The notes: generated by a model not told the origin, from the letters alone. A DNA stretch of 39,051 nucleotides from Cyanobacteria bacterium P01_D01_bin.156 (GCA_039024555.1 JBCCQQ010000060.1:1-39051); one strand, 5' to 3'. Positions 18,323 through 25,944 are shown, counted from the first letter of the stretch. Numbers and translations: made by a program.

Positions 18323-18979
18323 TCAATTCTCAAGGGGTTTAATGCAGTCTGCTACCTCATTCTGCGGGCTATTGACCAAGGTACTCACCGAGTAGGCTTC
18401 CATTTCATTGGCATCATAGGGTTGCATAATCCTCTGGGCTTGGCCAGGTGATGCTGTTAACCAATGCTCATAATCATCCTTGCTAACGATCACCGGCATC
18501 CGATTATGAATCGGATGTATTACTTCATTGGGTTCTGTTGTCAGAATTGTGCAGGTTTCCAAATAGCTACCATCGGCACCTTCCCACTGCTCCCATAGCC
18601 CGGCAAAAGCAAATAATGAATGATTTTTCAGATGAATGTAAAAAGGCTGTTTCTTTTTATTGCTAGCAGTCCGCTGCCATTCATAAAAACCATCGGTAGG
18701 AATTAGACAGCGTCGTCGTTTGAATGCAGCTCGAAATGAGGGTTTTTCTGCCACTGTTTCTGAACGCGCGTTAATAAGCTTGTACCCAATCTTGTAATCC
18801 TTAGCCCAGGAGGGCACCAGGCCCCATTGAAAAATGCGGTACTCGCGACCGGCAATGACAGCAGAGACCGGCTGGGATGGGGCAATGTTGTAACGCGGCG
18901 GCGGTTCTGGCTCGGTAGTGAGTTGAAAAGTTTCGGCTAGGTCCTGGCCAGAATGAGTTTGAGTATAGCGACCGCACAT
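18323..18979 (-). CDS. SRAP family (YedK/HMCES-like) abasic-site protecting protein
   Basis: Diagnostic N-terminal MCGRY (start 18979), RYNIAPSQ, WGLVP.W, INARSET, GFYEW, HNRMPVI. Confidence 0.95.
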   Translation of the reverse strand: MCGRYTQTHSGQDLAETFQLTTEPEPPPRYNIAPSQPVSAVIAGREYRIFQWGLVPSWAKDYKIGYKLINARSETVAEKPSFRAAFKRRRCLIPTDGFYEWQRTASNKKKQPFYIHLKNHSLFAFAGLWEQWEGADGSYLETCTILTTEPNEVIHPIHNRMPVIVSKDDYEHWLTASPGQAQRIMQPYDANEMEAYSVSTLVNSPQNEVADCIKPLEN

Positions 18980-19034
18980 GAAGAGTCCTTTGAACTGCGA
19001 CAATTGTACTGATTTTTCATGGGAGGTTCACCTG

Positions 19035-19379
19035 ATGGAATTGCTATATCGAATTGCTCCAGCCGCAGATGTTCACACAGCAGAAGCTCAGGGATATTTT
19101 GAGTCAGCAGATTTGGCAGCAGAAGGGTTTATCCACTGTTCGTTTTTGCATCAGGTGCTGGGGGTCAGTCAACGGCATTATGCAGGGCAGCAAGGATTGG
19201 TGTTGTTTAGCATTGATCCGACATTGGTGGATTGTGAGATTCGGGTGGAAAATACGTCGGGTGGTACGGAGCTGTATCCCCACATTTATGGACAGGTGCC
19301 TTGGGCTGCGGTAGAGCAGATTTACACAGACACCTATGATGCTGCCGGGATTTTTGCGCTGCCAGCAGAGTTGCGGTGA
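19035..19379 (+). CDS. DUF952 family protein
   Basis: LYRI, EGFIHCS, LYPHIYG motifs; GGAGG RBS before ATG 19035. Confidence 0.88.
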   Translation: MELLYRIAPAADVHTAEAQGYFESADLAAEGFIHCSFLHQVLGVSQRHYAGQQGLVLFSIDPTLVDCEIRVENTSGGTELYPHIYGQVPWAAVEQIYTDTYDAAGIFALPAELR

Positions 19380-21066: not shown

Positions 21067-21282
21067 TTATTGTTGGTGGTTTGGACGTGCTGGGAAATGG
21101 TAATGGTTGGGCATCAGGCAGTAGGCGTTGATGTCCAGGGTGCTGTTGACAAGGTAGTAGCGAAAACGACGTAGGAAGAAGAGATAGTTTTCGCGTTCGA
21201 AGAAGATTTTTTGGTGATTGTTGCCTCGGTTGTAGAGGTGGTAATACTGGCCTGGTAGAAAGGCTGTTTTGCGCCGTGGCAT
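21067..21282 (-). pseudogene. Truncated RAYT/IS200-like HUH transposase
   Basis: MPRRK..FLPGQYYHLYNRGNN..KIF..RENY..FL...AYCLMPNHYHF, then an unrelated 8-aa tail and stop; the half with the catalytic Tyr is missing. Confidence 0.88.
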
Positions 21283-21389
21283 CGTCGAACCTGATGATTT
21301 GCTTGGTCTAGGATTCCCTTGATGGGGGTGGCGGTTGCGATGCAAAGGTTTCTGCCTTGGCTCCCGGTTTCCTGCAATAGCTTCTGCCT

Positions 21390-21454
21390 AGATCCCCGGT
21401 TTCTGGTCAAGTTCAGGATCTTGGCAATAGTTCAGCTTTAGAAACCAGGGATCT
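21390..21454. repeat. Inverted repeat pair (REP-like) upstream of truncated RAYT
   Basis: AGATCCCCGGTTTCT (21390-21404) pairs with AGAAACCAGGGATCT (21440-21454), 1 mismatch; a third partial copy GGCTCCCGGTTTC lies at about 21359. Confidence 0.75.
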
Positions 21455-21731: not shown

Positions 21732-22403
21732 ATGTCGAAGACAAAAATTACTCCTTTATATGCAGAAACCCGTATTCTTTTAAGCTTGTTTGCTATTGGA
21801 GAGGATCGGATTTCTCCGTCTGACTTTGTACCTAAGGGAGATAAGTATCAACAGGCACTAGTTGACCTGGTTGAAGATAATTGCCTCTCTGAAACGTTGA
21901 AGGGGAAGCGATACAAAAAATATTCATTGCTTTCAGAGGGAAAGGAGAAGCTAATCCAGAATCTAGCCAATGAAGAACTTTCTTTTTTCTCTTCCCTCGG
22001 ACCTAAAACTACTAATGGATTGCTAAAAGTCTTTCGTGAGTTAGTGAGTGACGAAACAATATCAAACGGCGGATCGAAGGACATAACTCAAAATGGAACT
22101 CATCACAATGGGAACGAGCACTCTATTACTTCCTACGAAGCTTTCACTAGTGTTGCGTTAGATGTGTACGAACAATTGAATGCTGATTTTCAGTGTGAGG
22201 ATCTAGTACCGATTTATCGTATTCGCCGCACTATTGGAGGGCAGGTTTCACGAACAAAGTTCAATGAATGGTTGCTGAAAATGCAAGCTAATGACAAGCT
22301 ACAGCTAATTGGTGGTGAGATGCCTGAACTGACCCCTGAGAAAGCAGAAGACTCTGTTAAAACATCCCTTGGTGGTATTCGTTACTATGCCAAACGTTTG
22401 TAA
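21732..22403 (+). CDS. Hypothetical protein, probable tandem winged-helix domains (gene 1 of candidate defence operon)
   Basis: N-terminal helix-turn-helix/wing ending KKYSLLSEGKEKL; low-complexity linker; C-terminal DLVPIYRIRR...SRTKFNEWLLKMQ...GGIRYY domain. Confidence 0.75.
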   Translation: MSKTKITPLYAETRILLSLFAIGEDRISPSDFVPKGDKYQQALVDLVEDNCLSETLKGKRYKKYSLLSEGKEKLIQNLANEELSFFSSLGPKTTNGLLKVFRELVSDETISNGGSKDITQNGTHHNGNEHSITSYEAFTSVALDVYEQLNADFQCEDLVPIYRIRRTIGGQVSRTKFNEWLLKMQANDKLQLIGGEMPELTPEKAEDSVKTSLGGIRYYAKRL

Positions 22404-22460
22404 CATCCGCTTGTGTTCATACCTCATCTGAAACTTTCTAATAACTATAAATTAGCAACG

Positions 22461-24485
22461 ATGGTCGCCACTGTAGATTCGAAAGTAGAAATCGTTAATC
22501 TTGCTATTCGAGAACAAAACCCTTTCTCTCAACCTCCTTATGTAAAGGCAAAACATATTTGGGACAAAGGCTTTCCAGATGTTGAATCTCTTAATGCTCA
22601 TGCGTCTGATGCAGTATTTAAGGCCCTAGACGAAATTCGAGCAAAGCATTATTCAAGTACTTCTTTGCTGATTACGGCCCAAGATGGGACGGGTAAAAGT
22701 CATATTATCAGCCGTATTAGATATCATCTTCGGCAGAATGGAAAGGCACTGTTCATTTTTGCTAATCAGTTTAATGACCTTAACGAAGTCAAACAAGGTT
22801 TCCAAAATTTACTAGCTGTTAGTTTAGGAAAAGAAGGTTCTCAGGAAATTACCCAATGGCAGAAAGTAGCAGCTAATATAGCTAATATAGCCTTGTCAAT
22901 TTCAAAGCCTGGGGGCGCTGAAATTGAAGCCAATGTACTTATTAAGAAGTTTACAAATAATAGTGTAGAAAAAGTAGGGAAGTGGGTTCAAAAGTTATGT
23001 GATCTCTTCTGTGAAAATAGAGATATCCAAGATCGTGAAATTATTAAGGCTATTTTATGGTGTTTATCTGATAGCCAAAAAACTTTTGCAGTTAATTGGC
23101 TAGCTGGTGAAGAACTTGCTCAATATAAGGCAAATGAACTTCGATTACCTTCTCAAAGAGAAGGATTTAATATCGTCTTACAAATTCTAGATATTATCAG
23201 TCAATTTTATGAATTAGTTATCTGTTTTGATGAGCTTGATATCGATGAGTTTGATGAGCGAGGACTACATAAATCTCAGGTCGTTGCAGGTTTAGTCAAA
23301 GATTTATTCGAAAACCTGAATAGAGGTTTGATTCTGAGCACGATGATGCCAGGAACGTGGAACAATCGAGTAAAACAACTACCTGGTGGTGTATGGAATA
23401 AAATGATAGCTCAAGGACGACCTTACGAGCTGAAATATATGGATGAAAAATCCATTGTTAAGTTAGTTGAGTTCTCTCTTGAAAACTATTATAAGGAAAG
23501 AGATATAACTCCTCCCTATGCACTGTACCCATTTGATGAAAATGAATTAAAAGACATAGGTAAGGAAAAACCTACAGTTCGTGAAGTATTAAGATGGTGC
23601 CGAGAGAATTGTTTGTCTAAGCTAAAGACAGCTGATACATCAGAAGAAATTAGTTTAGTAGAGCAGGAAAAGGAAGTTTTACAGTCCGACGTTGGCGATG
23701 CTTTTCGCTCAGAAATTGAATCTATAGATTCATCGTATTGGGAGCAAAATAAGATAATTGGCAATGCCTTGTTCTTCAGTTTTCGTCTGCTTATTTCATG
23801 TTCCCTGAATAATATAGAAGTCTTTGATGTGACTGATGGTGTAAAGAGTAGAGGTGGTAGAGACCCTTACTTGAATTTCAAAATTATCGGTAAAGAGAGT
23901 GGCGCTGACTTCTGTATTGGTGTTGCAGTACTTCAAAATAATGGTGGAAGAAGCTTGGGCGCAGGATTTAAGAGGCTCTTAGATAAGAAAGGAGAATTTA
24001 ATATCACTCGTGGATGTTTAGTCCGTTCTCAAGACAAACCACTGAATCGATACTTTAGAGATACCTATCTTGAACCCTTAATTCATGATCAAGGTGGTGA
24101 GTGGGTTGATCTTTTAGCGGAAGAAATTCAACCGTTGATTGCAATTCATAATGTGTATCGAAAACGGGAGGAATATGATTTGACAGAAGAACAGATCTTT
24201 GAATTTATTGAAAATGCTGATCCAAAACTTCTGTTAGATATACATAGTCCCATACTGCAAGAAATTCTTAGCTCTCCTACCCATCAAGTCCCTGAAACTA
24301 TTGATGAGCCAGAGTTAGAGAATGTTGATCCTGAGGAACTCCTAGAACAACCAGTAGAGTCGAACACCATAGCAGTAGCAGTATCCGCAAGTGATTCTCA
24401 TCCTGAACTAGATCTCTTGGATAAAGTTGATGAAGAAGATTTATCTGAAGAGGATGATTTAGCAGATCTGGCTAAGGATGATTAA
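22461..24485 (+). CDS. P-loop ATPase (AAA+-like) with C-terminal alpha/beta domain and acidic tail (gene 2)
   Basis: N-terminal NPF, Walker A AQDGTGKSH, Walker B LVICFDELD, PLYPF-like ALYPF and PTVREVL sensor-like helix; start ATG 22461 (the track uses GTG 22413). Confidence 0.85.
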   Translation: MVATVDSKVEIVNLAIREQNPFSQPPYVKAKHIWDKGFPDVESLNAHASDAVFKALDEIRAKHYSSTSLLITAQDGTGKSHIISRIRYHLRQNGKALFIFANQFNDLNEVKQGFQNLLAVSLGKEGSQEITQWQKVAANIANIALSISKPGGAEIEANVLIKKFTNNSVEKVGKWVQKLCDLFCENRDIQDREIIKAILWCLSDSQKTFAVNWLAGEELAQYKANELRLPSQREGFNIVLQILDIISQFYELVICFDELDIDEFDERGLHKSQVVAGLVKDLFENLNRGLILSTMMPGTWNNRVKQLPGGVWNKMIAQGRPYELKYMDEKSIVKLVEFSLENYYKERDITPPYALYPFDENELKDIGKEKPTVREVLRWCRENCLSKLKTADTSEEISLVEQEKEVLQSDVGDAFRSEIESIDSSYWEQNKIIGNALFFSFRLLISCSLNNIEVFDVTDGVKSRGGRDPYLNFKIIGKESGADFCIGVAVLQNNGGRSLGAGFKRLLDKKGEFNITRGCLVRSQDKPLNRYFRDTYLEPLIHDQGGEWVDLLAEEIQPLIAIHNVYRKREEYDLTEEQIFEFIENADPKLLLDIHSPILQEILSSPTHQVPETIDEPELENVDPEELLEQPVESNTIAVAVSASDSHPELDLLDKVDEEDLSEEDDLADLAKDD

Positions 24486-25944
24486 GGTGCTTACTTTAGA
24501 CACAGCTTTATGCTTGCCAGCTCCTGAAATACGAGCAGTAACAGACGGGCGATTAGTTGCCGTTCTATCTGGCGTCTCTATGACTAAAGGTCTTAAGTTC
24601 GTGCTGTGCCCCAGTTCTGCTAGATTTTTCGACAAGCCGATAGATCAATATTATCAGACTGATTTCCTCTCAACAGCGCATACGGTACTAGAACAGTTAA
24701 AAATAGCTGGCCCAACATTAGAGTATTGGGCCGAATGTCAGGGGTGTAGCATTATTGACACTCCTGAAGAACTTAATGCAATTGCTGCCCTTGGGATCTG
24801 GCATCTAGACGTCCTTAAAACTTGGCTAGCAGAGCGTCAGTTTCTGATTATCGCCTTTCTTAGAACTTATCAATTACCGACGCCAGTTACCGAAACAGCC
24901 ATTCCCAAAGTCGGCAAATTTATTGGTTTATCAAACCCTATACAAGTTCACCAAAAACGCCCTATCCTTGAGGATCTTCTTTTCCGTCATCGCTTGGAAC
25001 AAGCCCAAGCTTTTCAGCTCCCAAAACATTCTGAATTAGAAGCTTTAAATACTGCTTTAGAGCAATCCACTTTAGTTGCTAATCCTGCCGCTCAAGCCTT
25101 TCAAAGTAATCTCAGGCACGTACTTGACTGGAAGCCAGTGCCTGTTCCTAAAGCTGACTCTCAAAACACAGATTGGATAAATCAAATAGCTGCGCTTGGT
25201 GAAAGAAGTAAAGAATTAGACGCAGGTAAAAGTAATTATCGGGCAGGTACTGAATTCGAAGATATTGTTCGCAAGAGTTTAGAATTTCTTGGTTTCACAA
25301 TTAATTACTATCATCAAGGCAAAGCAGGTGGTCTGGATCTCGTCTGTTCAGAGCCTTATTTGTTGATTGGAGAATGTAAAGCAGGTAAGTCGATACCTAA
25401 TACCACTGCCGTACAGCTCCTTAATCTCGGTACTTTACGCCTTAAAACTAAAGAGGCATTCAATCGCTCTAAGAAGATTATTATCGGTCCCGGTATACCC
25501 ACTACTCAACTTGCAGATGCAGCTAAGGTTCATGGTATGGCTATTATCAACCCACATACTTTAGAAAAACTCGTCAAGCTACAGCATCAACATCCTGGTT
25601 CTATTGATTTGATCGAACTTAAAAAGTACTTGATCGATGGGCGTGCTGATGATGAAGTAACACTGTATATTGAGCAGATTAAATCAAAGCTGCATTTGCG
25701 CTCATTTATCGTAAAACAAGTACGAGAATATCTGTTAAATGCTAAAGCCCAAAGTGCAAATGTAGATTCGCTTCATGCAGTCTATACTGTCTCCAATCCA
25801 CCTAAACGCCTTAGTCGAAAAGAGTTTTACGATATTTTAGTTGAATTGGCATCTCCATTCTCAGGCTATTTAGGAAGACAACAAACTCCCAATGGTGATG
25901 ATTCCTTTTACTTTTTACGCTATTTCATTGTTGGAGAGTCTTAA
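24478..25944 (+). CDS. DUF1802-like N-terminal domain fused to Mrr-like PD-(D/E)XK endonuclease and C-terminal helical/winged domain (gene 3)
   Basis: Nuclease motifs GTEFEDIVRKSLEFLGF, GGLDL, IGECKAG, AVQL. The N-terminus (TALCLPAPEIRAVTDGRLVAVL...YWAEC...FLRTYQLP.P) resembles DUF1802. 8-bp overlap (ATGATTAA) with the ATPase. Confidence 0.78.
   Translation: MIKVLTLDTALCLPAPEIRAVTDGRLVAVLSGVSMTKGLKFVLCPSSARFFDKPIDQYYQTDFLSTAHTVLEQLKIAGPTLEYWAECQGCSIIDTPEELNAIAALGIWHLDVLKTWLAERQFLIIAFLRTYQLPTPVTETAIPKVGKFIGLSNPIQVHQKRPILEDLLFRHRLEQAQAFQLPKHSELEALNTALEQSTLVANPAAQAFQSNLRHVLDWKPVPVPKADSQNTDWINQIAALGERSKELDAGKSNYRAGTEFEDIVRKSLEFLGFTINYYHQGKAGGLDLVCSEPYLLIGECKAGKSIPNTTAVQLLNLGTLRLKTKEAFNRSKKIIIGPGIPTTQLADAAKVHGMAIINPHTLEKLVKLQHQHPGSIDLIELKKYLIDGRADDEVTLYIEQIKSKLHLRSFIVKQVREYLLNAKAQSANVDSLHAVYTVSNPPKRLSRKEFYDILVELASPFSGYLGRQQTPNGDDSFYFLRYFIVGES

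Follow-up and report, generated by a model that had tools for sequence, protein, structure and literature searches.

A cyanobacterial operon with an Orc1/Cdc6-type ATPase and an ASCH-fused nuclease: cassette exchange in a candidate methylase-free restriction system

An operon that combines an Orc/Cdc6 ATPase, an ASCH-fused restriction endonuclease (REase) and a DndG-like protein with three domains of the winged helix-turn-helix (wHTH) type was predicted in one sentence by Rakesh, Aravind and Krishnan (Nucleic Acids Research 2024; PMC10853773, section 22). The section on this operon type reports no experiment, related operons in the same paper may hold 2–4 wHTH domains, and the paper assigns an exonuclease–PDDEXK–FtsK arrangement to counter-invader defence; the word 'cyanobacteria' is absent from its main text. 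We analysed three genes of this kind in Cyanobacteria bacterium P01_D01_bin.156, which occupy positions 21732–25944 on the plus strand of a 39,051-nt stretch (GCA_039024555.1 JBCCQQ010000060.1:1-39051; hereafter the window), contig C60 of a genome that measures 6.6 Mb and is 99% complete. Gene 1 (21732–22403) encodes an apparent tandem winged-helix-type protein of 223 amino acids (aa). Gene 2 (22461–24485; 674 aa counted from the ATG) encodes an Orc1/Cdc6-clade AAA+ ATPase followed by an apparently inactive REase fold and an acidic tail of low model confidence. Gene 3 (24478–25944; 488 aa) joins a seemingly degenerate DUF1802/ASCH domain, a helical linker, a PD-(D/E)XK nuclease with intact site and a winged helix. 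We consider the odds slightly better than even that this trio is an ATP-gated, methylase-free machine that restricts phage or other incoming DNA and whose specificity parts can be swapped.

The initial annotation saw in the trio no named system that it recognised, but its architecture is the one already predicted. Both operons have the same three components, with an inactive REase behind the Orc/Cdc6 ATPase and an active REase fused to an ASCH domain. They differ in that the predicted operon has three wHTH domains whereas gene 1 appears to hold two, and in that an Orc-type winged helix ends gene 3 of the trio. The trio is a typical member of a predicted cyanobacterial system and not categorically new, and this identity is strengthened because the HerA/FtsK form described in the same paper is also found in cyanobacteria (loci L079, L081, L082 and L088). 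New relative to section 22 of the main text are the exchange of cassettes, the loss of DUF1802 motifs, fusions that lack ASCH and a copy whose place has been taken by a retron-type reverse transcriptase. In the literature searched, which leaves subscription journals mostly outside, only PMC10853773 describes the architecture, and we found no experimental test of the operon. The accessible parts of 10.1101/2025.10.09.681413, PMC12191111, PMC12707154, PMC11037411 and PMC6972931 do not describe it, the first of these presenting architectures other than that of the trio. PADLOC gave no system match for the window trio or for two other trios, and NCBIfam gave no real match.

We surveyed 301 genomes of the phylum for the ATPase (threshold E 1e-15 or better) and tallied adjacency by hand from coordinates. 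Of 51 genomes that hold the ATPase, 47 have genes 1, 2 and 3 side by side in that order; two of the other four are cut by contig ends (G218, G244) and two have a solitary ATPase (G014, G092). At the level of loci, 75 of 78 hold all three genes and three stop at a contig edge before gene 3 (two locus pairs being duplicates). About one in six sampled genomes (47/301) carries the operon, yet PADLOC has no model for it. It occurs in most genomes of two filamentous families. Family f7 has it in 27–28 of 35 genomes, and eight families totalling 165 genomes gave no match. Nearly every named relative of the ATPase is cyanobacterial. Beside the trio, the genera share no further conserved gene. A Pfam-only scan of 114 flanking open reading frames (ORFs) at 28 of 48 wide loci detected no DNA methyltransferase family, and none is conserved beside the trio, which bears out the earlier description of the unit as lacking a methyltransferase.

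Pairwise comparison of 70 loci, chosen after duplicates had been removed along with any locus whose genes were split or short, yielded 33 pairs with AAA+ identity of at least 90%; these pairs are not independent, and some winged helices are shortened by locus ends. The nuclease is less than 60% identical in 20 of the pairs, with a minimum of 35%, and 24 pairs are under that mark in the winged helix; gene 1, the dead REase, ASCH and the linker are always at least 60% identical. A single cassette is changed in ten pairs (nuclease only in three, winged helix only in seven). At the DNA level, loci L068 and L069 are 85–100% identical along the operon, 37–63% over ~800 bp of nuclease and winged helix, and at least 87% thereafter. 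Each of the two most frequent nuclease types is present in half of the 24 ATPase groups (12). The nuclease type of the window is that of genome G315 (74% identity), though the two ATPases are 35% and the two ASCH domains 23% identical, and Microcoleus copies have it too (72%). Nuclease and winged-helix distances show no correlation with those of any other part (Spearman 0.00–0.21); the corresponding values are 0.87 for AAA+ and dead REase and 0.81 for gene 1 and ASCH. Splits in conflict with the ATPase tree number 24 of 28 supported for the nuclease and 12 of 24 for ASCH. We conclude that the nuclease and the C-terminal winged helix are exchanged as cassettes between relatives.

Six natural proteins (three clusters at 90%) are fusions in which the ATPase is joined to the part of gene 3 that begins at profile position 232–233, without ASCH or linker, and at least two of them carry different nuclease alleles. 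Among proteins of 917–2615 aa searched for kinship to gene 3, no full ATPase–ASCH–nuclease fusion scored, a result of little weight. We also considered ASCH as a module that docks on the ATPase, as the fusions suggest; co-variation does not support it, because ASCH distances track gene 1 more than the ATPase (0.57).

The AlphaFold2 (AF2) model of gene 3 has a mean predicted local distance difference test (pLDDT) of 87.8 and a predicted template modelling score (pTM) of 0.60; a sequence search of the PDB with gene 3 gave no match at E 1. In the model, the DUF1802 domain (24490–24972, plus strand, aa 5–165; Pfam DUF1802 E 1.4e-15) resembles, over residues 5–160, CXorf40A (6kir; Z 9.4, root-mean-square deviation (rmsd) 3.6, 138 residues aligned) and ZmASCH (5guq; Z 8.2), a predicted ASCH/PUA fold that the stand-alone DUF1802 family probably shares, since it is homologous to the gene 3 domain; DUF1802 would thereby gain a fold assignment. 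The family motifs, comprising K, E and W (KEW), R and GG (RKGG), and Y, H and Q (YEHQ), are present in 4/4 stand-alone DUF1802 proteins and in 0/72 fused gene 3 copies. While genes 1, 2 and 3 are each single-copy in the window genome, gene 3 has a sole paralogue on contig C19, a stand-alone DUF1802 gene with intact motifs (L099:1495-2064) between glutamate synthase and GAPDH genes.

These observations bear on a type IV reading implied in PMC10853773, in which a modified base (6mA or N4-acyl/methyl cytosine) is flipped out and read by ASCH, which guides the nuclease fused to it, with gene 1 and the ATPase acting only as boosters. Such a role would suit an ASCH fold joined to an intact-site nuclease with no methyltransferase, and none of the 72 full-length gene 3 copies in the alignment has lost the domain, in which W84, W108 and F148 are kept. 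Some ATPase homologues carry in addition a SeqA C-terminal-like domain (P0136, P0138, P0162, P0189, L090; E 3e-5 to 1.5e-3, under the Pfam cut-off), a candidate methyl-GATC reader. Against this stand the loss of the family motifs in every fused copy, the natural fusions without ASCH, and the exchange data, in which ASCH is among the stable parts and the nuclease and winged helix vary; moreover, the 6mA-reader role of ASCH is predicted and unproven according to the accessible part of PMC11037411. We regard base reading by ASCH as rather unlikely. Given the lost motifs and the ASCH-less fusions, the DUF1802 domain may not be a reader, and it looks like a degenerate scaffold.

The nuclease cassette (25165–25677, plus strand, aa 230–400) is FokI/BspD6I/HindIII-like. 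Its catalytic residues E261, D287, E299 and K301 are invariant in 72/72 aligned gene 3 copies, in keeping with the intact core first noted, and the cassette's variation is located in the helix after E-x-K. Residues 206–403 match Nt.BspD6I (2ewf; Z 14.4, rmsd 3.1, 175 aligned), FokI (2fok; Z 14.2) and HindIII (Z 11.8). The C-terminal Orc1/Cdc6-like winged helix (25684–25941, plus strand, aa 403–488) matches Cdc6 (7jgr_G; Z 10.4, rmsd 2.2, 83 aligned); DpnI is absent among its listed structure matches, which does not exclude kinship. The FokI cleavage domain is non-specific, and its place among the top matches would fit abortive defence, in which the ATPase, activated by a phage protein or a replication intermediate, sets free a non-specific nuclease, the cell dies and allele swapping escapes phage inhibitors. 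Abortive defence needs no methyltransferase, would benefit filamentous hosts through the death of single cells, and agrees with weak STAND/Avs2-like P-loop matches (E 2e-4). Yet the trio contains no sensor repeats (TPR, WD40), its accessory domains are all of DNA-binding types, the site-specific HindIII also matches, and the variation lies next to the catalytic motif in the helix just named; we judge this alternative clearly unlikely.

Gene 2 was modelled with pLDDT 86.6 and pTM 0.80. Its AAA+ core and lid (22497–23636, plus strand, aa 13–392) have intact Walker A and B motifs, as first noted, with G76, G78, K79 and D257 invariant in 73/73 aligned ATPases, E258 present in 70/73, and R374 invariant. 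Pfam returned only AAA matches below threshold, but the five best structure matches of gene 2 are all Cdc6/Orc proteins (Z 13.6–14.6); the AAA+ core matches Cdc6/Orc1 (2qby_B; Z 14.6, rmsd 4.0, 240 aligned), TnsC (7mbw; Z 13.6) and BrxC (9zdx; Z 11.3). Matches of gene 2 to YTH domains in the PDB sequence search (E 0.004, profile 197–268) were treated as chance because the region falls within the AAA+ fold. The following domain (23688–24290, plus strand, aa 410–610) shows the order helix-strand-strand-strand-helix-strand in the model; its nearest Atlas models, own family excluded, are AAA-HerA fusions (template modelling (TM) score 0.64) and Mrr_cat/PDDEXK proteins (TM 0.43–0.51). At the sites expected for the acidic PD and E-x-K residues, according to an inferred mapping, it has N472 and I-G-V-A-V-L-Q, and since N and V-A-V-L-Q take the catalytic positions, we assign it with moderate support as a dead nuclease fold.

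Gene 1 has no weighty match in Pfam, PADLOC or NCBIfam, and the DndG and SspB models of the PADLOC scan did not match it. A profile of 45 homologues weakly matches the N-terminal region of RIO2 kinase (E 0.04), which we take to be a winged helix, and the protein aligns with the first protein (277 aa) of a sister FtsK operon (hhalign 97.5%) over the last two of three apparent repeats. On these two grounds gene 1 appears to be a tandem protein of two winged helices, although a test of one half against the other gave no significant match and its Atlas model reached pTM 0.42. It is probably a DNA-binding loader of the ATPase. Its variable C-terminal tail (22305–22391, plus strand, aa 192–220, roughly the last 30 residues) is inherited with the ATPase: across the 70 loci tail identity tracks AAA+ identity (Spearman 0.86), the rest of gene 1 less so (0.37). 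This co-inheritance fits either contact or plain linkage, and adjacency may explain it.

In the restriction reading that we favour, gene 1 would bind DNA and load gene 2 through the C-terminal tail. ATPases of the Cdc6/Orc1, TnsC and BrxC types assemble on duplex DNA with ATP, and gene 2 would oligomerise there as its relatives do. It would then license gene 3 to cut, and the choice of target would lie with the alleles of nuclease and winged helix rather than with the DUF1802/ASCH domain. Without a linked methylase, the sparing of self must depend on methylation state or on gating; methylation state is the most likely means, the target being either an invader-specific mark or a site protected by unlinked host methyltransferases. 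Methyltransferase genes of the m5C, Dam-like and N6/N4 kinds are present, unlinked to the trio, in the window genome, which makes it conceivable that solitary methylases give protection. Extended further, the gene 1 core and the dead ASCH domain would act as recombination anchors between which the ATPase block, nuclease and winged-helix cassettes are reshuffled among genera of cyanobacteria, with a different target for every combination and with unlinked solitary methyltransferases protecting the host. We put this combinatorial machine forward only tentatively. If true, an ORC-type system's nuclease would be the seat of specificity shuffling like that of type I hsdS, and solitary cyanobacterial methylases would gain a restriction partner.

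Trio genes are split, frameshifted or truncated in several genomes. In genome G020 (L091:5226-8380 on G020:C1) a remnant, consisting of the N-terminal half of gene 1 and the C-terminal end of gene 3, is split by a Schlafen AlbA_2-TPR gene and a gene for a retron-type reverse transcriptase (RT; PADLOC E 5e-136); the slot adjoins the same 528-aa gene beside which G041 and G144 keep an intact trio. The two inserted genes may represent an unlisted retron–effector pairing. Cassette exchange, broken copies and in-place replacement by a retron-type RT are signs of an arms race. Together with the conserved, methylase-free ATPase–nuclease unit and the lack of a PADLOC match, they partly support the initial proposal of a candidate anti-phage module; its parts on novelty, McrBC likeness and defence-island flanks did not stand. 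The flanks carry no such weight because Uma2, one of the neighbours cited, has 50 copies over the cut-off in the window genome, and 28 other loci mostly have housekeeping neighbours.

Several points weigh against a restriction function or against parts of it. The trio is present in 10/10 genomes of one genus, and its chromosomal slot is fixed in Microcoleus and in the window's own genus. The 114 scanned flanking ORFs are mostly housekeeping genes, with 11 Uma2 and two PIN. No match was found in plasmids (genes 2 and 3) or phages (gene 3); viral contigs searched for gene 2 gave eight pattern matches, none confirmed. Solitary ATPases exist (G014, G092 and a second copy in G008), the gene 1 fold and its number of winged helices are weakly supported, and the four stand-alone DUF1802 copies used for comparison come from one genus, the window's own. 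ASCH follows gene 1 (0.81) more than the ATPase, and cassette exchange also fits escape from phage inhibitors with an unchanged DNA target. Near-fixed presence and position in some genera, housekeeping neighbours and the lack of mobile-element copies among those found would also suit a lineage-specific module for DNA repair, recombination or addiction. A role outside defence is nevertheless very unlikely in our view: old nuclease alleles are common to several genera and exchanged in place, copies are frameshifted and truncated, a retron-type RT has replaced one copy, and full-length gene 3 is missing from 18 of 22 own-genus genomes, several of which are incomplete. The four own-genus genomes that hold it are distributed patchily, and own-genus copies always adjoin the same Uma2-LysE-AsnC block.

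Other arrangements of the same genes were observed. The lone gene 2 homologues of G008, G092 and G014 (L083-L085) lie between genes for a putative membrane protein and a vWA protein, with genes 1 and 3 missing. At L089:5657-9876 (G212:C1) a gene 1 homologue precedes a 1097-aa PLD-SNF2 helicase that replaces ATPase and nuclease. The sister operon (L079, L081, L082, L088) consists of a longer winged-helix gene, an Orc-type ATPase, an exonuclease-PDDEXK-FtsK alpha-FtsK gene and then a ParA-like gene. A second ATPase lies upstream in L081, and L080 has the operon without the third gene. Because PMC10853773 assigns such an arrangement to counter-invader defence, the shared first two genes speak for the restriction reading of the trio. 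An 825-aa fusion of a DEDDh exonuclease-like domain to a distant Orc-type ATPase directly follows clpB at L086:4885-7362 and L087:5447-7924, and in L087 a type I restriction locus comes after it. In several genomes of family f7, up to three tandem two-gene units (105 aa plus a 120-aa aspartyl-protease-like protein) stand beside the trio slot (L093:3424-5236, L091, L096).

In the window, the gene layout is as first described: the three genes are co-oriented, with a gap of 57 bp between genes 1 and 2 and an overlap of 8 bp (ATGATTAA) between genes 2 and 3. An in-frame GTG at 22413 could add 16 aa to gene 2, but homologues start near the ATG at 22461. The hand counts of GC (16/60, 20/60 and 35/60) are exact, and the block is AT-richer than its surroundings: its GC content is 39.1% against 47.1% for the genome, equally low in 0.8% of 1491 equal-sized genome tiles. 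The HIP1 octamer is absent from the block as reported, but this is weak evidence because 1.6 are expected and 16.5% of tiles have none. Promoter, terminator and repeat scans of the block gave no result beyond chance. The flanking genes were correctly named: a PIN gene (Pfam E 1e-15), a truncated RAYT-like ORF (Y1_Tnp E 0.02), Uma2 (E 8e-19) and a PD-(D/E)XK-like REase-fold gene (PADLOC PD_DExK E 6e-51). The truncated RAYT/IS200-like ORF (21067–21403, minus strand) stops just past its HxH motif and is preceded by a 32-bp tandem repeat (21341–21403, 77% identity), a possible REP-like element. At 18323–19379, 2.3 kb upstream of the trio, lie what we take from their motifs to be an SRAP/HMCES-like gene on the minus strand and, on the plus strand, a DUF952-like gene. 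Genome-wide, some 6-bp palindromes are strongly avoided (GGGCCC 0.14, GCCGGC 0.24, CGGCCG 0.29 and GGCGCC 0.30 of expected) and CGATCG is in excess (1.41 of expected). We considered this bias as a trace of the gene 3 nuclease and set it aside, as no tie to this nuclease could be made.

Should the operon restrict DNA, it would be relevant to cyanophage resistance and to the poor transformability of filamentous cyanobacteria. The natural allele series at one locus, in which one ATPase is combined with different nucleases or winged helices, and the single-chain fusions make the question of specificity directly testable.

Gene 2 resembles Avs/STAND ATPases over no more than 70 aa of the P-loop (Avs2, E 2e-4), and its C-terminal region is a REase fold, not a repeat sensor. 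The trio resembles McrBC in pairing an NTPase with a PD-(D/E)XK nuclease without a methylase, a likeness that the initial annotation had noted. However, the ATPase folds with Orc1/Cdc6, TnsC and BrxC, McrB is not among its best 50 structure matches, the nuclease is FokI/BspD6I-like with no McrC model match (at E 0.1, Pfam, PADLOC and NCBIfam gave neither McrB nor McrC), and conservation requires a third gene. BREX (BrxC/D) and SspABCDE (with the triple-wHTH protein SspB and the Orc/Cdc6 ATPase SspC) likewise combine an Orc/Cdc6-clade ATPase with a multi-wHTH partner; the likeness to BrxC is seen in its structure match to gene 2 and in weak BrxC_BrxD Pfam matches of distant homologues. Unlike these systems, the trio has no PglX, PglZ, BrxL or phosphorothioation genes nearby and no PADLOC Brx or Ssp match. 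An obligatory link to phosphorothioation was rejected: dndD (TIGR03185) exceeds its cut-off in 86/301 genomes but was not found in four trio-bearing genomes at least 99% complete (G000, G047, G080, G089, which include the window's own; ssp genes were not searched), so phosphorothioation is not required. The PUA-superfamily type IV enzymes MspJI, TagI and VcaM4I and the winged-helix fusion DpnI share with gene 3 a PUA-like domain or winged helix joined to a nuclease and the lack of a methyltransferase; they are ATPase-free, whereas the PUA-like domain of the trio appears degenerate and dispensable. The Orc/Cdc6-coupled HerA/FtsK 'capture' systems of PMC10853773 share with the trio a homologous winged-helix gene (hhalign 97.5%) and a homologous ATPase (E 1e-21 to 1e-26 at three of four loci), and differ in their third gene, which encodes a 3'-5' exonuclease-PDDEXK-FtsK alpha-FtsK protein in place of the ASCH-REase-winged-helix protein of the trio.

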